Shown here piece after piece: positions 4,352 to 45,651 of a stretch of DNA of 64,000 nucleotides. The notes beneath the pieces were generated by a model that was not told where the DNA came from, ran no database searches, and saw only the letters and a list, made by a program, of their open reading frames with translations. The DNA comes from Escherichia coli (GTDB taxonomy: Bacteria; Pseudomonadota; Gammaproteobacteria; Enterobacterales; Enterobacteriaceae). Each line of letters starts with the position of its first letter. The stretch's first letter is position 1. The position numbers and the translations under genes were made by a program. The stretch lies in NCBI RefSeq assembly GCF_046105845.1, contig NZ_CP151004.1, one strand, 5' to 3'.

Positions 4352-4413
4352 TTATTCAGTCGATAGTAACCCGCCCTTCGGGGATAGCAAGCATTTTTTG
4401 CAAAAAGGGGTAG

Positions 4414-4439
4414 ATGCAATCGGTTACGCTCTGTATAAT
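4414..4439 (+). promoter_or_regulatory. guaBA promoter region: candidate PurR-type operator (atgcaatcggttacgc) adjacent to -10 TATAAT (4434-4439)
   Basis: TATAAT hexamer 44 bp upstream of guaB ATG; partial pur-box-like palindrome; recollection of guaB regulation. Confidence 0.4.
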
Positions 4440-4482
4440 GCCGCGGCAATATTTATTAACCACTCTGGTCGAGATATTGCCC

Positions 4483-5949
4483 ATGCTACGTATCGCTAAA
4501 GAAGCTCTGACGTTTGACGACGTTCTCCTCGTTCCTGCTCATTCTACCGTTCTGCCGAATACTGCTGACCTCAGCACCCAGCTGACGAAAACTATTCGTC
4601 TGAATATCCCTATGCTTTCCGCAGCAATGGATACCGTAACGGAAGCGCGCCTGGCTATTGCTCTGGCTCAGGAAGGCGGTATCGGCTTTATCCACAAAAA
4701 TATGTCCATTGAACGCCAGGCGGAAGAAGTTCGCCGTGTGAAAAAACACGAATCTGGCGTGGTGACTGACCCGCAGACTGTTCTGCCAACCACGACGCTG
4801 CGCGAAGTGAAAGAACTGACCGAGCGTAACGGCTTTGCGGGCTACCCGGTCGTTACCGAAGAAAACGAACTGGTGGGTATTATCACCGGTCGTGACGTAC
4901 GTTTTGTTACCGACCTGAGCCAGCCGGTTAGCGTTTACATGACGCCGAAAGAACGTCTGGTCACCGTGCGTGAAGGTGAAGCCCGTGAAGTTGTGCTGGC
5001 AAAAATGCACGAAAAACGCGTTGAAAAAGCGCTGGTGGTTGATGACGAATTCCACCTGATCGGTATGATCACCGTGAAAGACTTCCAGAAAGCGGAACGT
5101 AAACCGAACGCCTGTAAAGACGAGCAAGGCCGTCTGCGTGTTGGTGCAGCGGTTGGTGCTGGCGCTGGTAACGAAGAGCGTGTCGACGCGCTTGTTGCTG
5201 CAGGCGTTGACGTTCTGCTGATCGACTCCTCTCACGGTCACTCTGAAGGCGTTCTGCAGCGTATCCGTGAAACTCGTGCTAAATATCCGGATCTGCAAAT
5301 CATCGGCGGCAACGTGGCAACAGCTGCGGGGGCACGCGCTCTGGCAGAAGCTGGTTGCAGCGCGGTTAAAGTCGGTATCGGCCCTGGCTCTATCTGTACG
5401 ACTCGTATCGTGACTGGCGTAGGTGTTCCGCAGATCACCGCCGTTGCTGATGCAGTAGAAGCCCTGGAAGGCACCGGTATTCCGGTTATCGCTGACGGTG
5501 GTATCCGTTTCTCAGGCGATATCGCCAAAGCTATCGCCGCAGGCGCAAGCGCGGTGATGGTGGGTTCCATGCTGGCAGGTACTGAAGAATCTCCGGGTGA
5601 AATCGAACTCTACCAGGGCCGTTCTTACAAATCTTACCGTGGGATGGGCTCTCTGGGTGCGATGTCCAAAGGTTCTTCTGACCGTTACTTCCAGAGCGAC
5701 AACGCTGCCGACAAACTGGTTCCGGAAGGTATCGAAGGTCGCGTGGCCTATAAAGGTCGCCTGAAAGAGATCATTCACCAGCAGATGGGCGGCCTGCGCT
5801 CCTGTATGGGCCTGACCGGCTGTGGTACTATCGACGAACTGCGTACTAAAGCGGAGTTTGTACGTATCAGCGGTGCGGGCATTCAGGAAAGCCACGTTCA
5901 CGACGTGACCATTACTAAAGAGTCCCCGAACTACCGTCTGGGCTCCTGA
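4483..5949 (+). CDS. guaB: IMP dehydrogenase GuaB
   Basis: 488 aa from [21 protein letters not shown]; CBS domains, catalytic Cys loop [11 protein letters not shown]. Confidence 0.96.
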
Positions 5950-5955
5950 TTCTCT

Positions 5956-5978
5956 TCGCCCGACTTCATGTCGGGCGA
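5956..5978 (+). other. Intercistronic hairpin between guaB and guaA (tcgcccgac ttcat gtcgggcga)
   Basis: 9-bp perfect stem read directly, followed by tttatatt. Confidence 0.45.
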
Positions 5979-6017
5979 TTTATATTATCTGTTTCACTTG
6001 CCTCGGAATAAGCGTCA

Positions 6018-7595
6018 ATGACGGAAAACATTCATAAGCATCGCATCCTCATTCTGGACTTCGGTTCTCAGTACACTCAACTGGTTGCGCGCCGCGTGCG
6101 TGAACTGGGTGTTTACTGCGAACTGTGGGCGTGGGATGTGACAGAAGCACAAATTCGTGACTTCAACCCAAGCGGCATTATTCTTTCCGGCGGCCCGGAA
6201 AGCACCACCGAAGAAAACAGCCCGCGTGCGCCGCAGTATGTTTTTGAAGCAGGCGTACCGGTATTCGGCGTTTGCTATGGCATGCAGACCATGGCAATGC
6301 AGTTGGGCGGTCACGTTGAAGCCTCTAACGAACGTGAATTTGGCTACGCGCAGGTTGAAGTCGTAAACGACAGCGCACTGGTTCGCGGTATTGAAGATGC
6401 TCTGACCGCAGACGGTAAACCTCTGCTCGATGTCTGGATGAGCCACGGCGATAAAGTTACCGCTATCCCGTCCGACTTCGTCACCGTAGCCAGCACCGAA
6501 AGCTGCCCGTTTGCCATTATGGCTAACGAAGAAAAACGCTTCTATGGCGTACAGTTCCACCCGGAAGTGACTCACACCCGTCAGGGTATGCGCATGCTGG
6601 AGCGTTTTGTGCGTGATATCTGCCAGTGTGAAGCCCTGTGGACGCCAGCGAAAATTATCGACGATGCTGTAGCTCGCATCCGCGAGCAGGTAGGCGACGA
6701 TAAAGTCATCCTCGGCCTCTCTGGTGGTGTGGATTCCTCCGTAACCGCAATGCTGCTGCACCGCGCTATCGGTAAAAACCTGACTTGCGTATTCGTCGAC
6801 AACGGCCTGCTGCGTCTCAACGAAGCAGAGCAGGTTCTGGATATGTTTGGCGATCACTTTGGTCTGAACATTGTTCACGTTCCGGCAGAAGATCGCTTCC
6901 TGTCAGCGTTGGCCGGCGAAAACGATCCGGAAGCAAAACGTAAAATCATCGGGCGCGTTTTCGTTGAAGTATTCGATGAAGAAGCACTGAAACTGGAAGA
7001 CGTGAAGTGGCTGGCGCAGGGCACTATCTACCCTGACGTTATTGAATCTGCCGCATCTGCAACCGGTAAAGCACACGTCATCAAATCTCACCACAACGTG
7101 GGCGGCCTGCCGAAAGAGATGAAGATGGGCCTGGTTGAACCGCTGAAAGAGCTGTTCAAAGACGAAGTGCGTAAGATTGGTCTGGAGCTGGGCCTGCCGT
7201 ACGACATGCTGTACCGTCACCCGTTCCCGGGACCAGGCCTCGGCGTTCGTGTACTGGGCGAAGTGAAGAAAGAGTACTGCGACCTGCTGCGCCGTGCTGA
7301 CGCCATCTTCATTGAAGAACTGCGTAAAGCGGACCTGTACGACAAAGTCAGCCAGGCGTTCACCGTCTTCCTGCCGGTACGTTCCGTTGGTGTAATGGGC
7401 GATGGTCGTAAGTATGACTGGGTTGTTTCTCTGCGTGCTGTCGAAACCATCGACTTTATGACCGCACACTGGGCGCATCTGCCGTACGATTTCCTCGGTC
7501 GCGTTTCCAACCGCATTATCAATGAAGTGAACGGTATTTCCCGCGTGGTGTATGACATCAGCGGCAAGCCGCCAGCTACCATTGAGTGGGAGTGA
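6018..7595 (+). CDS. guaA: GMP synthase (glutamine-hydrolysing) GuaA
   Basis: 525 aa; GATase domain then SGGVDSS PP-loop ATPase motif. Confidence 0.97.
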
Positions 7596-7980: not shown

Positions 7981-9261
7981 ATGGCGATTAACGGAGAGGA
8001 CGGTGTTAGTGCAGTCACCGTGGATGAACTACTCAAGCAAGGCCTTCGGATACCGAACTATCAACGCCCATACAGTTGGGAAGTATCGACCGCTCTACAA
8101 CTGGTGGATGATCTTAGCGAAGCTCTTCGAGATACCGAAAGAAAAGATATTCCCTATGTTTTGGGTGCAATCATTCTTCACGATGATGGTGAGTATCTCA
8201 ATGTAGTCGACGGACAGCAACGTCTGCTGACTTTGCGAATGATTCTTGCGGCCTTAGATCCGATAAATCATCAGATTTCGGTGTCTGGTAACAGCGAAAC
8301 TCCTGTCTCCCTGGTTTGGATAGAGCTTCAAAGGCGCCTGTCGCAGTTGGAAGATAAAAAAGAATTTTTGGATTTTATCTGTCACAAATGTCAGTTGGTG
8401 CGTATTGTGACGGACGATATTGATGAGGCATTTCGTGTCTTTGATTCCCAGAACTATCGCGGCAAACCGCTTGCCCCTCATGACTTGCTCAAAGCACACC
8501 ACCTCCGCGAAATGCACGATGAGTCCGCTGCTATGAAAGTGGCTGTCGTTGAGGCTTGGGAAGCCGTAAATGATGAGGATCTGGACAGGCTTTTTTCTAC
8601 TTTTTTATACCGGATATCCAAGTGGTCACGAGGCGAAAGCTCGCTCGAATTTGCTATTCGGGACATCGGGATGTTTAAGGGAATTTCATCACGATCCCAC
8701 AGATCATTTTCGCCAAATCTGCGATATCACCTTGCAGCACAAGCCGCTATGCCACTTCTAAGTGCATGGGCGGTGTCCTCTACACATGATGCACGAAATG
8801 CCGGGCGCAGCCGCTTTCAGCTTGATGCCCCGATAATCGCTGGGCGCTCATTTTTCGAGATGGTGACATTCATGCTTGACGAATTGAAGATACTGGAAAA
8901 AGAGGTTATCGACAGAGGTTTCAAAAACTTTGGCCCATCTCAAAGTCGCTACCGCTACGTGTACGAATTGTTCATTGCCGCGCTGCTTTGCTATACAAAC
9001 AAGTTTGGCGATGAAGATGTGGATGAAGTGCGAAATAGATTATTCGCATGGGCATATGCCTTGCGGGTCGAGTTACTTCGTGTGCAATTTGTATCTGCTG
9101 ACAACCGAGCTCGAGGTAAAAACGATGCAAATAAATCGCCTTTTGTTTTGCTACGCAACGCGATGACTGGAAGTGTTGTCCGCAAACTTCCAATAGCAAG
9201 TCAGCCATACAACGATAACCACGAAAAGGAACTCGTTGCTTTTATCAAGGGGCTGCAATGA
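7981..9261 (+). CDS. DUF262 (ParB/Srx-like, DGQQR motif) protein, 426 aa, no recognisable nuclease domain
   Basis: Motifs IPNYQRPYSW, VDGQQRLLTL (8209-8223), FRVFDSQNYRGKPLAPHDLLK; stop overlaps next start (ATGA). Confidence 0.88.
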   Translation: MAINGEDGVSAVTVDELLKQGLRIPNYQRPYSWEVSTALQLVDDLSEALRDTERKDIPYVLGAIILHDDGEYLNVVDGQQRLLTLRMILAALDPINHQISVSGNSETPVSLVWIELQRRLSQLEDKKEFLDFICHKCQLVRIVTDDIDEAFRVFDSQNYRGKPLAPHDLLKAHHLREMHDESAAMKVAVVEAWEAVNDEDLDRLFSTFLYRISKWSRGESSLEFAIRDIGMFKGISSRSHRSFSPNLRYHLAAQAAMPLLSAWAVSSTHDARNAGRSRFQLDAPIIAGRSFFEMVTFMLDELKILEKEVIDRGFKNFGPSQSRYRYVYELFIAALLCYTNKFGDEDVDEVRNRLFAWAYALRVELLRVQFVSADNRARGKNDANKSPFVLLRNAMTGSVVRKLPIASQPYNDNHEKELVAFIKGLQ

Positions 9262-11210
9262 GCAAGAAGGAGTTGAGACCCGAACTGATAACAGTAGGCA
9301 AGCTATTCACGGGCTATTATCTGATTCCTATTTATCAACGGAACTATGCTTGGCGGGCCGAACAGATTGAGCAACTTATCAGCGATATTCAAGGCTCGGT
9401 GGTTGGGGGCCAGGACGACTATTTTCTTGGGAACCTTGTTGTAATCAAGCGGGGTAGAGAGGACGAGTTCGAGGTCATAGATGGACAACAACGACTTACA
9501 ACCCTCTATCTGCTTCTGACCTTCCTGGAGCAAGACGGTGAGGGTGGGAAGCTGTCGATTGGCCATGCAGGCCACTTGCAATATGAGTCGCGCGCACGGG
9601 CAACGGAAGCCCTGCGGCGAGTAGCACAGGAGGCGGCTAAGGGGCACGTCCGACCGCAGGGCTCCACGAGTAATGCAGATGCTGGCATCCATGAAGGCTA
9701 CAGCATCATCAATCAGTTCTTCAAACAAAATGAAACCCTTAATCGCTCACGCGAAAAATTCTCCGATTTCTTGCTAAAGAAGGTTACTGTCGTCCGTGCC
9801 TCGCTGCCACCCAATACCGACCTCAATCGCTACTTCGAGATCATGAACACTCGTGGGCAGCAACTCAAGCAGGTTGATATTGTTAAGGCTCGCCTGATGA
9901 GCAAGCTGCCCAATCAATATGAACGCGAATGCTTCGCGTGGGTTTGGGATGCCTGTGCTGACATGGATTCTTATGTCCAGATGTCTCTGACCCGTGGTGA
10001 CACCAGTTTACGAAACAAAGTATTTGGCGATGAATGGTCCTGGCTGGAGGTGACCAGCTTCGCGTCGCTAATGGAAAGTCGTCCGCAATCCGACATCAGT
10101 TCATTAAGGCAATCCTCCGAAGGGGTATCGTTGTCCTTGGATGAGGCGTTGTCAAAATACGCTAAAGAGATCGAGTCAAATTCCACTGAAGACGAGGGCA
10201 ACGAGCGGTTTCGTTCGACTATTGAGTTTCCGGCCTTTCTGCTACACGTTCTAAGAATTATGAAAGGCGATGAGGTCGAAGACGAAGGCCAGCTTGACGA
10301 CAAGCGCCTCATCAAGTCATTTGACGACGCCGTAAATAATGTACCCGATGCTAAAGCCGATTGGGTGCGTAGCTTTGCATTTATGCTTCTTAAGTGCCGT
10401 AACCTCTTCGATGGCTTCATCTTGAAGCGTCAATTCACGGCGAACATCGGTGACGATGGCGATTGGTCTCTCCAGCGATTGAAGAAAGGCGGTGCGGACA
10501 AGAAGCCAGCCCCGACGTACATCCATGTTTTCTCGGCCAGCAATGGAAACTTGGAGGAGGACAGCGGTGCTGACCCACATACCCGAGATGTATTGTTGCT
10601 TCAGTCCATGCTTCGGATTACCTACACTTCTCCGCGAACGATGCACTGGATTACCAAAGTTCTTCGCTGGCTATCCGTTAAAGCCCCTCAAGACGCGAAA
10701 CATGCGGATCTTGCCGATTTGTTGAAGGGGTATGCCCGCAGCAAGGTTAAAGAGACATTCCCCTTTGAGGAAGATCAGCAACCACAAGGGTTTGGTATCA
10801 GCCGTATCGTCTTTTCATACCTCGACTATCTTCTGTTGAGTGATTCCTCAAAACGAGATTTCAAATTTCAGTTCAGAACTTCCATTGAGCACTTTTATCC
10901 ACAGCATCCGGACAAAGAACAGTCGGGCGCGGCTGTTTCAGGTTCTAGCCTTAACCTGCTTGGCAACCTCGCGCTCGTAAGCGTCAGCGCGAACTCAAAA
11001 TTCAGCAATAGCCTTCCCAGAGCGAAGGCCGAAAACTTCAAGGATACGATTGAACTTCAAAGTCCCAAGCTCAAGAGAATGGCGGAAATCGCTCGAAATA
11101 CAAGCTGGGACGATCAGCAGATAACAGCACATCATGAAGAGATGGTGACATTGCTTCGTGATGATGTAAGTCTGGTGGAGGCAAGCGGAAGATCCTACCC
11201 GGGGCGTTGA
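9258..11210 (+). CDS. GmrSD-like protein: N-terminal DUF262 plus C-terminal DUF1524 His-Me-finger nuclease motif, 650 aa
   Basis: IPIYQRNYAW, IDGQQRLTTL (9480-9494), YFEIMNTRGQQLKQVD; C-terminal SIEHFYPQHP (10887-10904) and GNLALVSVSANSKFSN. Confidence 0.88.
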   Translation: MSKKELRPELITVGKLFTGYYLIPIYQRNYAWRAEQIEQLISDIQGSVVGGQDDYFLGNLVVIKRGREDEFEVIDGQQRLTTLYLLLTFLEQDGEGGKLSIGHAGHLQYESRARATEALRRVAQEAAKGHVRPQGSTSNADAGIHEGYSIINQFFKQNETLNRSREKFSDFLLKKVTVVRASLPPNTDLNRYFEIMNTRGQQLKQVDIVKARLMSKLPNQYERECFAWVWDACADMDSYVQMSLTRGDTSLRNKVFGDEWSWLEVTSFASLMESRPQSDISSLRQSSEGVSLSLDEALSKYAKEIESNSTEDEGNERFRSTIEFPAFLLHVLRIMKGDEVEDEGQLDDKRLIKSFDDAVNNVPDAKADWVRSFAFMLLKCRNLFDGFILKRQFTANIGDDGDWSLQRLKKGGADKKPAPTYIHVFSASNGNLEEDSGADPHTRDVLLLQSMLRITYTSPRTMHWITKVLRWLSVKAPQDAKHADLADLLKGYARSKVKETFPFEEDQQPQGFGISRIVFSYLDYLLLSDSSKRDFKFQFRTSIEHFYPQHPDKEQSGAAVSGSSLNLLGNLALVSVSANSKFSNSLPRAKAENFKDTIELQSPKLKRMAEIARNTSWDDQQITAHHEEMVTLLRDDVSLVEASGRSYPGR

Positions 11211-19500: not shown

Positions 19501-20138
19501 TTACTCGTCGGCAGCGTAGCCCTGCGGCGGCAGACGTTGACCATCCAGCCACGCGGCGTTTTCGTGCATTTTCAGACGACCATCGGCAAACCAGCTAATC
19601 ACCAGTGGATAAATAGCGTGTTCCTGGGTTTGCACGCGGGCGGTGATGTCATCTTCCGTATCACCAGCAAATACCGGGACTTTCGCCTGTAAAATAACCG
19701 GGCCACCGTCCAGTTCATCGGTGACGAAATGCACCGATGTACCGTGCTCCTCATCGCCATTTTCCAGCGCCTGACGATGGGTGTGTAATCCGGGATATTT
19801 CGGCAGCAGAGAAGGGTGAATGTTCAGCAAACGCCCGGCATAGTGGGAGACAAACGCCGGGCTGAGAATGCGCATAAAACCAGCCAGCACGACCACATCT
19901 GGTGCGTACATGTCGATTTCATGAATCAACTCCCGGTCATAGGCTTCACGACTGTCAAACGCGCTGGCGATGAGCGTATGCGTTGCAATACCCGCCTGGC
20001 GGGCGCGTTCAAGGCCGAACGCGTCGGCCTTATTGCTGAAAACTGCCCGTACGGTGCCTTTAATTTTGTTGGTTTTGCAGGCGTCAATAATTGCCTGCAA
20101 ATTACTTCCGTTGCCGGAAATAAGCACCACAATATTCA

Positions 20139-20139
<1 letters not shown>
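19501..20139 (-). CDS. purN: Phosphoribosylglycinamide formyltransferase PurN
   Basis: 212 aa; MNIVVLISGNGSNLQAII. Confidence 0.95.
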
Positions 20140-21194
<1,055 letters not shown>

Positions 21195-21240
21195 TTACTT
21201 GCGGTAGAAAAATAAAATTCGGCGCAATTCTAACAGGGAA

Positions 21241-21256
21241 AGCAAACGTTTGCGAG
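21241..21256 (-). promoter_or_regulatory. PurR operator (pur box) of purMN
   Basis: Minus-strand TCGCAAACGTTTGCTT palindrome upstream of purM. Confidence 0.6.
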
Positions 21257-21452
21257 ACTGCTTTACACAACCTTTTTGTACGTCTTTTCCCCAGGCGCGC
21301 GGCAAAACAATACTTGTACCAGGGCAAAGGATCGTTTTCGGATGGAATAATCTTCTTCCATAACCATTTGAATATAAAATAACTTTATCTCAAACCGTTA
21401 TCATTTTGACTAAAGTCAACGAAAATAATATTGCCGCCTTGAAGAAAGGAGG

Positions 21453-21473
21453 TATAATCCGTCGATTTTTTTT
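21453..21473 (+). promoter_or_regulatory. upp promoter -10 TATAAT and initially transcribed T8 tract (UTP-sensitive reiterative transcription)
   Basis: tataatccgtcgattttttttg; TATAAT 21453-21458, T-run 21466-21473. Confidence 0.6.
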
Positions 21474-21500
21474 GTGGCTGCCCCTCAAAGGAGAAAGAGT

Positions 21501-22212: not shown

Positions 22213-23502
22213 ATGACGCGCCGTGCTATCGGGGTGAGTGAAAGACCGCCACTTTTACAGACAATCCCGCTTAGTTTGCAACATTTGTTCGCCATGTTTG
22301 GTGCAACCGTCCTGGTGCCCGTCTTATTTCATATTAACCCGGCGACTGTACTGTTATTTAACGGTATAGGAACACTGCTGTATCTCTTCATCTGTAAAGG
22401 GAAAATTCCGGCTTATCTTGGTTCCAGCTTTGCCTTTATTTCACCGGTATTGTTACTGTTGCCGTTGGGGTATGAAGTCGCGCTGGGCGGCTTTATTATG
22501 TGCGGCGTGCTGTTCTGCCTGGTTTCTTTTATCGTGAAGAAAGCGGGGACCGGCTGGCTGGACGTGCTGTTTCCACCTGCGGCAATGGGCGCAATCGTTG
22601 CCGTCATCGGTCTGGAGCTGGCGGGCGTAGCTGCCGGTATGGCAGGTTTACTCCCGGCTGAAGGGCAAACTCCAGACTCCAAAACCATCATCATCTCCAT
22701 TACCACGCTGGCGGTTACGGTTTTAGGTTCCGTGCTGTTTCGTGGTTTCCTGGCAATTATCCCGATTTTAATTGGCGTGCTGGTGGGCTACGCGCTCTCT
22801 TTCGCAATGGGAATTGTCGATACCACGCCGATTATTAATGCTCACTGGTTTGCGCTGCCAACTCTCTATACGCCGCGCTTCGAGTGGTTTGCCATTCTGA
22901 CTATTCTGCCAGCGGCGTTAGTGGTTATTGCCGAACACGTAGGGCACCTGGTGGTAACGGCTAATATCGTCAAAAAAGATCTGCTGCGCGATCCTGGTCT
23001 GCACCGTTCGATGTTTGCTAACGGCTTGTCGACCGTGATCTCCGGCTTCTTTGGCTCCACGCCAAATACCACCTACGGGGAAAACATTGGCGTGATGGCG
23101 ATCACCCGTGTTTACAGTACCTGGGTTATCGGCGGGGCAGCGATTTTCGCTATCCTGCTTTCCTGCGTCGGTAAACTGGCTGCTGCTATCCAGATGATCC
23201 CATTGCCGGTGATGGGCGGCGTTTCGCTGCTGCTTTATGGTGTCATCGGTGCTTCCGGTATTCGTGTTTTGATCGAATCGAAAGTGGATTACAACAAAGC
23301 ACAGAACCTGATCCTGACTTCCGTGATTTTGATCATCGGTGTCAGCGGCGCGAAGGTAAACATCGGCGCGGCGGAGCTGAAAGGTATGGCGCTGGCGACC
23401 ATCGTCGGTATCGGCTTAAGTTTGATCTTCAAACTGATTAGTGTGCTGCGCCCTGAAGAAGTGGTGCTGGACGCAGAAGACGCGGATATAACAGACAAAT
23501 AA
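22213..23502 (+). CDS. uraA: Uracil permease UraA
   Basis: 429 aa from [24 protein letters not shown]; NCS2 family. Confidence 0.95.
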
Positions 23503-26459: not shown

Positions 26460-27521
26460 ATGCTCGAAATGTTGATGCAATGGTATCGCCGCCGTTTTAG
26501 CGACCCGGAAGCGATTGCCTTGCTGGTTATTTTAGTTGCCGGATTTGGCATTATCTTTTTCTTTAGTGGCCTGCTTGCTCCACTGTTGGTGGCTATTGTG
26601 CTGGCCTATTTGCTGGAATGGCCAACCGTGCGCCTGCAATCTATTGGCTGCTCCCGCCGCTGGGCGACGTCGATTGTATTGGTGGTTTTCGTCGGTATAT
26701 TGCTACTGATGGCGTTCGTGGTATTGCCTATCGCCTGGCAGCAGGGCATCTACTTAATTCGCGATATGCCGGGGATGCTCAATAAGCTTTCTGACTTTGC
26801 CGCCACGTTGCCGCGCCGCTATCCGGCGTTGATGGATGCGGGCATTATTGATGCAATGGCCGAAAATATGCGCAGTCGGATGCTGACCATGGGCGATTCG
26901 GTGGTGAAAATTTCCCTCGCCTCGCTGGTCGGTTTGCTGACCATTGCCGTCTATCTGGTGCTGGTACCATTGATGGTCTTCTTCCTGCTGAAAGACAAAG
27001 AGCAGATGCTGAACGCCGTTCGCCGGGTGCTGCCACGTAACCGTGGACTGGCAGGACAGGTGTGGAAGGAGATGAATCAACAAATCACCAACTATATCCG
27101 CGGCAAAGTGCTGGAGATGATCGTGGTGGGGATTGCCACCTGGCTGGGATTCTTACTCTTCGGGCTGAACTATTCGCTGCTGCTGGCTGTGCTGGTCGGC
27201 TTCTCGGTACTTATTCCGTACATTGGCGCATTTGTGGTGACCATTCCGGTGGTTGGCGTGGCGCTATTCCAGTTTGGTGCTGGCACGGAATTCTGGAGCT
27301 GCTTCGCGGTGTATCTGATCATTCAGGCGCTGGACGGCAACCTGTTAGTACCTGTGTTGTTCTCCGAAGCGGTTAACCTGCATCCGCTGGTCATTATTTT
27401 ATCAGTAGTGATCTTCGGTGGTTTGTGGGGATTCTGGGGCGTATTCTTCGCCATTCCATTGGCGACGCTGATCAAAGCCGTGATCCACGCCTGGCCCGAT
27501 GGGCAAATCGCGCAAGAATAA
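26460..27521 (+). CDS. perM: AI-2E family permease PerM (YfgO)
   Basis: 353 aa polytopic membrane protein; K-12 synteny. Confidence 0.9.
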   Translation: MLEMLMQWYRRRFSDPEAIALLVILVAGFGIIFFFSGLLAPLLVAIVLAYLLEWPTVRLQSIGCSRRWATSIVLVVFVGILLLMAFVVLPIAWQQGIYLIRDMPGMLNKLSDFAATLPRRYPALMDAGIIDAMAENMRSRMLTMGDSVVKISLASLVGLLTIAVYLVLVPLMVFFLLKDKEQMLNAVRRVLPRNRGLAGQVWKEMNQQITNYIRGKVLEMIVVGIATWLGFLLFGLNYSLLLAVLVGFSVLIPYIGAFVVTIPVVGVALFQFGAGTEFWSCFAVYLIIQALDGNLLVPVLFSEAVNLHPLVIILSVVIFGGLWGFWGVFFAIPLATLIKAVIHAWPDGQIAQE

Positions 27522-36138: not shown

Positions 36139-37578
36139 TTACTGCAACCAGGTCGCGGCGATTACGCTGGAAATCAGCGACATCACAATCAGTACAATCA
36201 ACACCAGGCGCATTGATCCTGGCAGCGGTGCGGCATCGGCGACGGCCTCGCTCGGTTTGCCAGGCACGACGCGACCAAACCAGCGAATAAACCAGGCGAA
36301 ACTGGCGACCGATTCAATCATCAGCAGAATCATGGCGGGCAGCAGGATCCAGTACTCCACTGACAACGCAAAACCGGCGGCAAACAGCGGGAATTTACTG
36401 AAGAAGCCGTTGAACGGCGGTACGCCGGTAATCGCCAGCGCTGCCACGCAGAAACCCACGCCTGGCAACGGCAGGGTGTGCAATACGCCACGCAGACGCG
36501 GCAACAAGCGCGTGCCGCAGCTGTAACTCAGCGCACCTGCTACAAGGAAAAACAGGCTTTTAGCGAACGCGTGGTTGACGATGTAGGCGATGCTACCCTC
36601 CAGCGCCAGCCGCGAGCCGAAGATGGAGAGCGACAAGCCGAAGAACATCCAGCCAAGTTGAGTGATGGTCGACCAGGCCAGCAACCGCTTCATATCCTGC
36701 TGTGGCAAATACATCAGGAAGCCGTAAAGAATGGTGACCAGTGCCATAACCATGCCAACGCCGCCAATCACATGCGGGATATTGCCGCCGTCGATAATGG
36801 CACGGGCAAAAATGTAAACGCCCACTTTCACCATCGATGCGGCGTGGAGATAGGCGCTGATCGGTGTTGGCGCTTCCATTGCGTCCGGTAGCCACGCTTG
36901 CATCGGTAGCTGGGCCGATTTCCCCCACGCGGCAAACAGGATGCCGCCATAAACCAGATAACGTGCGTCGCCGTGTAACTCGCTCATCGCGCTAAGCGCA
37001 AACGTTCCGGTCTGCAAAAACAGCGTGGCGGCGGCAAGATACAACCCCAGCGAACCGATATGAGTGATAAGTAACGCTTTTAGTGCTGAACGCTGCGCTT
37101 TATCGCTCTGGTAATAACTGATCAACGCCCAGGAGCAGCCGCCCGTAATTTCAAAAAACAACAACTGACCGAGCAGCGTCGAGGAGAGTACCAGTCCCGC
37201 CATCGCGCCGATAAAAACCAGCAAAAATGCGTAATAACGATTCGTGCCGTTATGCGGGTGTTCGCGATTTTTATCCGTCAGATAACCCGTGGAGTAGATC
37301 GTGACCAGCAAACCGAGAAACACCACCACAAACAGAATCAGCGTACTCACGCGATCAATGACCAGGCCAAACAACGCCACATCCCCCACGTTGACCAACG
37401 TCAACGTGACGGCAACTTTATCGGCCTGATAAAACGCGGAGATCAGTGACAACATGCACAGCGTGGTCAGCGCGGCGAACAAAACCCCCCATTCGGCGGC
37501 CCGACGTTGTGGCGAAAACGAAACGACCAGTGCGCCGATAAAAGGCAGCATTAACGTCGTCAGAGCAAGATTTTCCAT
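36139..37578 (-). CDS. hyfD: Hydrogenase-4 membrane subunit HyfD (NuoL/M-like)
   Basis: 479 aa polytopic. Confidence 0.93.
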   Translation of the reverse strand: MENLALTTLMLPFIGALVVSFSPQRRAAEWGVLFAALTTLCMLSLISAFYQADKVAVTLTLVNVGDVALFGLVIDRVSTLILFVVVFLGLLVTIYSTGYLTDKNREHPHNGTNRYYAFLLVFIGAMAGLVLSSTLLGQLLFFEITGGCSWALISYYQSDKAQRSALKALLITHIGSLGLYLAAATLFLQTGTFALSAMSELHGDARYLVYGGILFAAWGKSAQLPMQAWLPDAMEAPTPISAYLHAASMVKVGVYIFARAIIDGGNIPHVIGGVGMVMALVTILYGFLMYLPQQDMKRLLAWSTITQLGWMFFGLSLSIFGSRLALEGSIAYIVNHAFAKSLFFLVAGALSYSCGTRLLPRLRGVLHTLPLPGVGFCVAALAITGVPPFNGFFSKFPLFAAGFALSVEYWILLPAMILLMIESVASFAWFIRWFGRVVPGKPSEAVADAAPLPGSMRLVLIVLIVMSLISSVIAATWLQ

Positions 37579-44558: not shown

Positions 44559-44565
44559 AAATACA

Positions 44566-44591
44566 GGGCTGGAATCATCCGGCCCTTTTTT
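44566..44591 (+). terminator. Terminator after bamC
   Basis: gggctgg aatcat ccggccc followed by tttttt. Confidence 0.45.
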
Positions 44592-44601
44592 CTGATATGA
44601 T

Positions 44602-44617
44602 ACGCAAACGTGTGCGT
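44602..44617 (+). promoter_or_regulatory. PurR operator (pur box) in purC control region
   Basis: ACGCAAACGTGTGCGT, near-consensus pur box. Confidence 0.55.
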
Positions 44618-44663: not shown

Positions 44664-44707
<44 letters not shown>

Positions 44708-44770: not shown

Positions 44771-45484
44771 ATGCAAAAGCAAGCTGAGTTGTATCGTGGT
44801 AAAGCGAAAACCGTATACAGCACGGAAAACCCGGACCTGTTGGTGCTCGAATTCCGCAATGATACGTCAGCAGGGGATGGCGCGCGCATTGAGCAGTTTG
44901 ATCGCAAAGGTATGGTGAACAACAAGTTCAACTACTTCATTATGAGCAAACTGGCTGAAGCGGGTATCCCGACTCAAATGGAGCGTCTGCTCTCCGATAC
45001 CGAATGTCTGGTGAAAAAGCTGGATATGGTGCCGGTTGAGTGTGTCGTGCGTAACCGTGCTGCTGGCTCTCTGGTGAAACGTCTTGGAATCGAAGAAGGT
45101 ATTGAGCTGAACCCGCCGCTGTTCGATCTGTTCCTGAAAAACGACGCCATGCACGATCCGATGGTCAACGAATCTTACTGCGAAACCTTTGGCTGGGTGA
45201 GCAAAGAGAACCTGGCGCGTATGAAAGAGCTGACCTACAAAGCGAACGACGTGCTGAAAAAACTGTTCGATGATGCTGGTCTGATTTTGGTCGACTTTAA
45301 ACTGGAGTTTGGCCTGTACAAAGGTGAAGTGGTACTGGGCGATGAGTTCTCCCCGGACGGCAGCCGCCTGTGGGACAAAGAAACGCTGGAGAAAATGGAC
45401 AAAGACCGTTTCCGCCAGAGCCTCGGTGGCCTGATCGAAGCCTATGAAGCCGTTGCCCGCCGCCTGGGTGTACAGCTGGACTGA
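44771..45484 (+). CDS. purC: SAICAR synthetase PurC
   Basis: 237 aa from [18 protein letters not shown]. Confidence 0.95.
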
Positions 45485-45651
45485 TTTTTCTATTCATCAT
45501 CTTGCCGTGCTGCTGGCACGGCAAGACAACCGCTCTCATAAGATGTGCATTGAACGCTCATTCCTCCGCCATTTCATCCCGCTTTCCTGTGGTAATCTTC
45601 CTCTGAACCACCTACGATCATTTCTATAATGAATATATTGTTGAGGTATCT

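Follow-up and report, generated by a model that had tools for sequence, protein, structure and literature searches.

Pur boxes at purMN, purC and guaBA in an Escherichia coli chromosome segment match documented PurR operators

Introduction

Operators of LacI/GalR-family repressors, among them lacO, galO and the CytR sites, are 16-bp imperfect palindromes with a central CpG that are bound by a dimer under the control of a small molecule, and Pur boxes share all of these traits. PurR, itself a dimer of this family, is active when bound to hypoxanthine or guanine: it differs from its relatives in that it needs a corepressor to bind, not an inducer to release, and in that it works as a dimer without tetramer looping. 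Occlusion of a promoter by the loaded repressor is established for the family. At purB, PurR is accepted as a transcriptional roadblock.

The PurR operators of purMN, purC and guaBA are already well documented. Two bodies of literature data back them: ChIP-chip in strain MG1655, performed with and without adenine (Cho et al. 2011, PMC3159470), and a titration assay on the purM side (PMC3266220). The former study cites the earlier work of He/Zalkin and of Meng/Nygaard on the same operators, and places many PurR boxes between the -35 and -10 elements, which is consistent with occlusion.

Here we follow up an initial annotation of a 64-kb stretch of E. coli DNA, referred to below in its whole length as the window. 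Read from the sequence, it had proposed palindromic PurR operators at purMN and purC, a weaker candidate at guaB, and a conserved wiring of the purine regulon across the window. As to the operators the finding is correct, and ordinary.

Results

Gene context of the window

The window is a chromosome segment running xseA-guaBA ... purMN/upp-uraA ... bamC-purC. Its gene order is that of MG1655 at about 2.575-2.64 Mb, in the opposite orientation. The genes concerned are the following.

Minus strand: xseA; plus strand: guaBA
4483-7595, plus strand: guaB-guaA operon (guaB 4483-5949, guaA 6018-7595), from ORFs, annotation and GuaB homologues
19501-21176, minus strand: purM-purN operon (purM 20139-21176 with a GTG start at 21176, purN 19501-20139), from ORFs and the RefSeq annotation of a 99.8% identical strain
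Plus strand: upp-uraA, next hda, bepA and yfgO, next the hyf operon
Plus strand: dapA-bamC-purC, with the purC ATG at 44771
44771-45484, plus strand: purC coding sequence, from its ORF, 95% identity to Salmonella PurC and the Pfam domain SAICAR_synt

Of 5,426 complete E. coli genomes, 5,425 contain a match to a 1.4-kb stretch around the purM box (95-99.8% identity), purM and upp being annotated beneath the matches. Across the whole window, the long purC leader included, Rfam gave no RNA family.

Between guaA and yfgI lies an insertion of about 3.8 kb with two overlapping genes (426 and 650 aa; window 7981-11210), while in strain AR_0067 yfgI follows guaA immediately, without these genes. The two proteins belong to the GmrSD family, one combining GmrSD_N with DUF7834 and the other GmrSD_N with GmrSD_C; the pair also matches the PADLOC models HEC-06, Orf5 and SspE, and looks like a type IV restriction-like defence islet.

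Motif scan and comparison with curated sites

We built a log-odds position weight matrix (PWM) from the 24 PurR sites of Cho 2011 Table 1 that lie outside the window, which avoids circularity, and scanned both strands with it. The training sites themselves score between 11.4 and 25.5 bits. Chance expectation was taken from 300 dinucleotide-preserving shuffles of the window. The matches discussed here are listed below.

44602-44617, plus strand: PurR operator of purC, ACGCAAACGTGTGCGT (reverse complement ACGCACACGTTTGCGT), 153 nt upstream of the purC ATG; 18.7 bits, rank 1 in the window
22589-22604, minus strand: PurR-like 16-mer inside uraA, ACGGCAACGATTGCGC, codons 126-131, a candidate only; 18.1 bits, rank 2
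21240-21255, minus strand: PurR operator of the purMN promoter, TCGCAAACGTTTGCTT on the purM strand, 63 nt to the purM GTG; 17.1 bits, rank 3
4414-4429, plus strand: weak PurR operator of the guaBA promoter, ATGCAATCGGTTACGC (reverse complement GCGTAACCGATTGCAT), 53 nt to the guaB start; 15.2 bits, rank 4
36996-37011: match in the hyfC/hyfD region; 14.3 bits
26505-26520, plus strand: fourth published PurR ChIP motif in the window (yfgO/yfgC), CCGGAAGCGATTGCCT, 45 nt inside the yfgO coding sequence (26460-27521); 13.8 bits
24124-24139: match in hda; 12.3 bits

The window is enriched for PurR motif matches: four positions reach at least 15 bits against 0.78 expected, three reach at least 17 bits against 0.22, and two reach at least 18 bits against 0.087. 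By score, the purC and purM boxes are each beyond chance. A simpler search with the consensus ACGCAAACGTTTGCGT, allowing up to three mismatches, gave three matches in the window against 0.70 expected (4 of 100 shuffles reach three), while the core pattern GCAAWCGWTTGC with one mismatch was uninformative, with two matches against 1.77 expected. The hyfC/hyfD and hda matches were treated as chance, since one to three chance matches per window are expected at such scores.

All three boxes fit the PurR motif ACGNAAACGTTTGCNT and carry the central CG. Counted in complementary pairs, their dyad symmetry is 7/8 for purC, 6/8 for purM and a weak 4/8 for guaB. Their 16-mers are identical, letter by letter, to the PurR motif calls of the MG1655 ChIP-chip study (Cho 2011 Table 1, PMC3159470). 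There, log2 enrichment was 2.08 with adenine and 0.98 without for the purM-purN motif TCGCAAACGTTTGCTT, 2.08 and 1.52 for the purC motif ACGCACACGTTTGCGT, and 0.84 with adenine for the guaB-guaA motif GCGTAACCGATTGCAT, which was undetected without it. The purM, purC, yfgO and uraA 16-mers are all found in NC_000913.3.

The initial annotation thus comes out well on its operators: the three strings that it gave are all present in the sequence, they rank first (purC), third (purM) and fourth (guaB) under the PWM comparison that it suggested, and their positions agree with the curated sites. Its purC and guaB coordinates are exact and its purM box is real, with coordinates (21241-21256) that are off by one. 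Calling guaB the weaker candidate was apt as well, this box having both the lowest ChIP enrichment in the published table and the lowest PWM score of the three. What its list of PurR sites missed is the ChIP-supported site at yfgO.

The purM box

To place the purM box in its promoter we aligned 42 Enterobacterales sequences on it. Box columns are 96% identical, compared with 45% in the upstream flank and 55% downstream beyond a second conserved element, the hexamer TAGAAT, which is 100% identical and keeps a fixed 7-nt spacing from the box.

21227-21232, minus strand: putative purM -10 hexamer TAGAAT, 7 nt downstream of the box, assigned by conservation

Two such islands, the box and TAGAAT, are the signature of a promoter whose -35 and spacer region is the operator. 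Judging from these hexamer positions and the start site that they predict, the box would lie at about -35 to -20 and cover the -35 hexamer and the spacer.

The box is also widespread. We scored 80 purM loci, from one genome per gammaproteobacterial species, with a threshold of at least 15 bits: in 61 of the 80 species the box is there, at a distance of 44-132 nt upstream of the gene. It is present in nearly all of the Enterobacterales, Pasteurellales, Vibrionales and Aeromonadales sampled, and at the same threshold it is absent upstream of purM from the Orbales, Alteromonadales and Shewanella-type genomes among these loci. Coding controls of equal length at the same loci gave a best score of about 3-4 bits per locus on average, with a maximum that never exceeded 13 bits.

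Within E. coli, the 325-bp purM-upp spacer differs from that of MG1655 by 11 SNPs, none of them in the box. PurR is titrated by the upp-purM spacer cloned on a high-copy plasmid, and the effect is weaker when the box has lost AAACGTTTGCTT (PMC3266220); a purR deletion strain is in the strain list of that study, which attributes the titration phenotype to PurR.

The upp side of the same spacer holds further elements. An FNR site, TTGACTTTAGTCAA, has been reported upstream of upp (PMC3266220), and this published site (TTGACTAAAGTCAA) lies at 21406-21419 of the window. The upp promoter is strong (TTGCCG-16-TATAAT, 21431-21458). All 11 SNPs fall within 21279-21426 and spare the Pur box, the FNR site and the promoter hexamers. 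Positions 21464-21474 hold a run of eight T (GATTTTTTTTG), presumably a tract of the type that serves UTP-sensitive reiterative transcription at upp.

The purC box in E. coli and its relatives

The purC box has a single mismatch to the consensus and sits at the upstream end of a long leader, among the following elements.

44565-44586, plus strand: bamC intrinsic terminator just upstream of the purC promoter, with a 9-bp stem of which 6 are GC pairs, then a T run (terminator scan)
44596-44601, plus strand: putative purC -10 hexamer TATGAT, abutting the box, as read from the sequence; Salmonella has TAAGAT in the same place
44664-44704: REP-like palindrome within the 153-nt purC leader, between operator and start codon

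If TATGAT is indeed the -10 hexamer, the box would span about -6 to +10 relative to the predicted start site. The palindrome at 44664-44704 is one that we take to resemble the REP consensus; the Salmonella purC leader is without such an element, and its gap is 115 nt compared with 153 nt here. The bamC-purC spacer has three SNPs relative to MG1655, none in the box.

Several relatives carry a box upstream of purC: it is the identical 16-mer in Salmonella (18.7 bits), ACGGTATCGTTTGCGT in Serratia marcescens (18.1 bits), ACGCAAACGATTGCTT in Morganella (19.9 bits) and ACGTAAACGATTGCTT in Erwinia aphidicola (21.7 bits).

A box at the 3' end of purC in other Enterobacterales

Pantoea sp. 1.19 and Dickeya lack the upstream box, their purC upstream regions scoring only 0.6 and 2.5 bits, respectively. 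Both have a near-consensus box exactly 2 nt after the purC stop codon (21.7 bits in Pantoea sp. 1.19, 22.5 bits in Dickeya). Scanning metagenome contigs with the plain pattern GAYTAACTGCGCAATCGTTT gave seven matches, five of which are purC 3' ends with the box in the same arrangement (21.2-23.7 bits); the other two are unrelated. Three of these metagenomic purC contigs include the complete upstream region: none of them has a box there, and behind the 3' box each carries a clean intrinsic terminator. The 3' box precedes a hairpin or terminator in Pantoea sp. 1.19, in Dickeya and in all five metagenomic contigs.

The two placements are mutually exclusive in all ten loci that could be scored on both sides. 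Their distribution is patchy within the Erwiniaceae, as Erwinia aphidicola has the box upstream and Pantoea sp. 1.19 at the 3' end. After the purC stop codon of the E. coli window (45485-45520) there is no equivalent box, the best score being 1.1 bits.

It is possible, if rather doubtful, that PurR control of purC is wired differently across Enterobacterales in the sense that the 3' box acts as a roadblock: polymerase would stall before the stop codon, giving truncated, non-stop purC transcripts. The searchable literature describes neither a 3' purC box nor a roadblock there; older closed-access comparative work lay outside the search. If functional, such a 3' placement would amount to PurR control of an unusual kind, and is worth an experiment.

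The guaB box

At guaB, the last 3 nt of the -35 hexamer TAGATG (4411-4416) fall within the box, which also takes in most of the 17-bp spacer and stops 4 nt short of TATAAT (4434-4439). It has five mismatches to the consensus. With 55% of shuffled windows containing a match that reaches 15 bits, its score does not by itself make it significant: significance comes only when the search is restricted to the promoter position, and the support for the box is position, ChIP and conservation. The literature describes the guaB core promoter as overlapped by a putative PurR site, and also reports downregulation of guaB by PurR and binding of DnaA over this core promoter (PMC2885671).

The box keeps its position beside TATAAT in every genus examined, with the following scores.

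Salmonella: 16.9 bits
Morganella: 14.6 bits
Proteus: 12.3 bits
Yersinia: 12.2 bits
Tatumella: 9.3 bits
Lonsdalea: 0.7 bits, central CG lost

It thus reaches at least 12 bits in four of six other genera. High conservation extends over the entire core promoter of guaB, from the -35 region up to the start codon, so that it does not single out the box.

The box also touches on gene annotation. The 'guaB' of the ORF list (4414-5949, 511 aa) begins at an ATG within the Pur box, and the true start is the ATG at 4483 (488 aa). GuaB starts of this over-extended kind seem to occur in public annotations, to judge from a 502-aa database protein labelled E. coli IMP dehydrogenase.

The yfgO site and the match inside uraA

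The yfgO 16-mer is identical in MG1655 and an exact match to an entry of Cho 2011 Table 1, where the yfgO/yfgC motif has a ChIP enrichment of 1.18 with adenine (PMC3159470). At its level of 13.8 bits about 1.4 chance matches per window are expected. It sits in coding sequence, though the same study calls its binding regions intergenic.

The uraA 16-mer is 15/16 identical to the ChIP-positive yieG site, and is absent from the published PurR ChIP table (PMC3159470). In the same study adenine lowered uraA 17.6-fold and a purR deletion changed it about 2-fold, an effect described as 'direct or indirect'. The peptide MGAIVAVIG is essentially invariant across 36 UraA orthologues. At the five third-codon positions within the match, identity ranges from 10/36 to 18/34 and does not exceed the gene-wide mean of 0.53. 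The exact 16-mer is retained in 7 of 33 sequences against a mean of 3.8%, and ranks fifth of 114 peptide-conserved windows; the retained copies come from the same few species, and unrelated peptide-conserved windows score similarly.

Considered as a new roadblock operator, the uraA match was downgraded for its absence from the ChIP table, for the lack of synonymous-site conservation and for an excess of exact copies that other peptide-conserved windows equal. The match probably arose fortuitously from codon choice, though there is a slight chance that it is a weak roadblock site in E. coli. The literature searched reports no PurR site in uraA, older closed-access comparative work again lying outside its coverage.

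Discussion

Operators for PurR control and the likely mechanism

We conclude, with a probability of roughly 93%, that the three 16-bp elements are operators for PurR control of purMN, purC and guaBA. The conclusion draws on their identity to sites that PurR occupies in living MG1655 cells, on motif scores, on conservation across species and on the fixed spacing to the -10 hexamer.

The mechanism is most likely promoter occlusion by a PurR dimer loaded with hypoxanthine or guanine. The geometry would differ between the promoters: at purMN the box would lie over the -35 hexamer and the spacer, at guaBA over the end of the -35 hexamer and the spacer, whereas at purC it would abut the -10 hexamer and cover the start-site region. 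In each case bound PurR would exclude RNA polymerase, lowering initiation at all three promoters when purines are plentiful. Such a scheme presumes an intact purR in this strain, a gene that lies outside the 64-kb window; MG1655 has the purR motif at 1,735,808, about 0.9 Mb away (PMC3159470).

A consensus sigma-70 scan called the upp and xseA promoters and none at purM, purC or guaB, because the -35 hexamers of these three are weak. The -10 and -35 assignments at the three promoters are consequently our own, and are backed by conservation for purM.

Rival readings

Could the matches be chance copies of a GC-rich palindrome that have no regulatory role? Even a shuffled window is expected to hold 0.78 matches of at least 15 bits, and comparable scores do occur within coding sequence, at uraA, in the hyfC/hyfD region and in hda. 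Against this, three matches of at least 17 bits are far from the 0.22 expected, all three boxes sit in promoters of purine genes and are identical to sites bound by PurR in vivo, and the purM box recurs in 61 of 80 species where coding controls stay at or below 13 bits. For purM and purC the chance reading is effectively refuted, and for the set we regard it as extremely unlikely. A related question is whether one or more of the boxes serve chiefly another repressor of the LacI/GalR family whose half-site is similar, such as RbsR or CytR, as LacI-family operators share a central CG and AA/TT-rich half-sites. The three boxes fit a PWM made solely from PurR ChIP sites, however, the ChIP was performed on epitope-tagged PurR with an occupancy that rose with adenine, as expected for a hypoxanthine corepressor (PMC3159470), and the upp-purM titration phenotype was attributed to PurR (PMC3266220). 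We therefore hold this substitution to be very improbable.

A narrower reading concerns guaB, where the element might be kept mainly as core promoter DNA, overlapping the reported DnaA site, with marginal PurR binding and little control of guaBA. It would account for an enrichment of 0.84 that is the lowest in the ChIP table and seen with adenine only (PMC3159470), for a box of 15.2 bits with five mismatches and four symmetric pairs of eight, and for a site still called 'putative' in the literature, with DnaA binding over the same core promoter (PMC2885671). Lonsdalea and Tatumella, in which the box is degraded and the promoter retained, fit it too, as does the conservation of the core promoter across genera. 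On the other side, a ChIP peak with a FIMO-significant motif falls exactly at the box (PMC3159470), cited genetics has PurR downregulating guaB (PMC2885671), and the core GCAAyCGrTTAC with its central CG is kept in five of six other genera, in spacer DNA that promoters normally leave unconstrained. On balance this reading appears unlikely, and we retain PurR control of guaBA.

How far the wiring is conserved

The proposal of a conserved wiring stands for purM, given its presence in 61 of 80 species, and mostly for guaB. For purC it is only partly true, because some Enterobacterales without the upstream box carry one 2 nt after the stop codon; in these relatives the operator seems to have been relocated.

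A reading of raw sequence recovered textbook PurR operators, and a simple PWM together with a comparison to curated sites was enough to validate them. Motif score alone would not justify guaB, and would wrongly promote the coding match in uraA. For the window itself the confirmation matters little; the by-products are the missed yfgO site, a caution on calls made by score only, and the unexpected 3' purC box in other Enterobacterales.

Comparison with known systems

Compared with the PurR operators of MG1655 (PMC3159470), those of the window have the same 16-mers, the same gene context and the same distances to the start codons, including the 153-nt gap at purC. The distance from guaB to purM is larger here, through the GmrSD-like insertion of about 3.8 kb. 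The second system to which they can be compared is that of the purB and purR roadblocks of E. coli, in which PurR boxes are functional inside the transcription unit. Unlike these, the purM, purC and guaB boxes overlap promoters; the uraA match, for its part, differs from them in having neither ChIP support nor synonymous-site conservation. The purB and purR roadblocks nevertheless provide a precedent for the site internal to yfgO, for the uraA match and for the 3' purC box of other genera.
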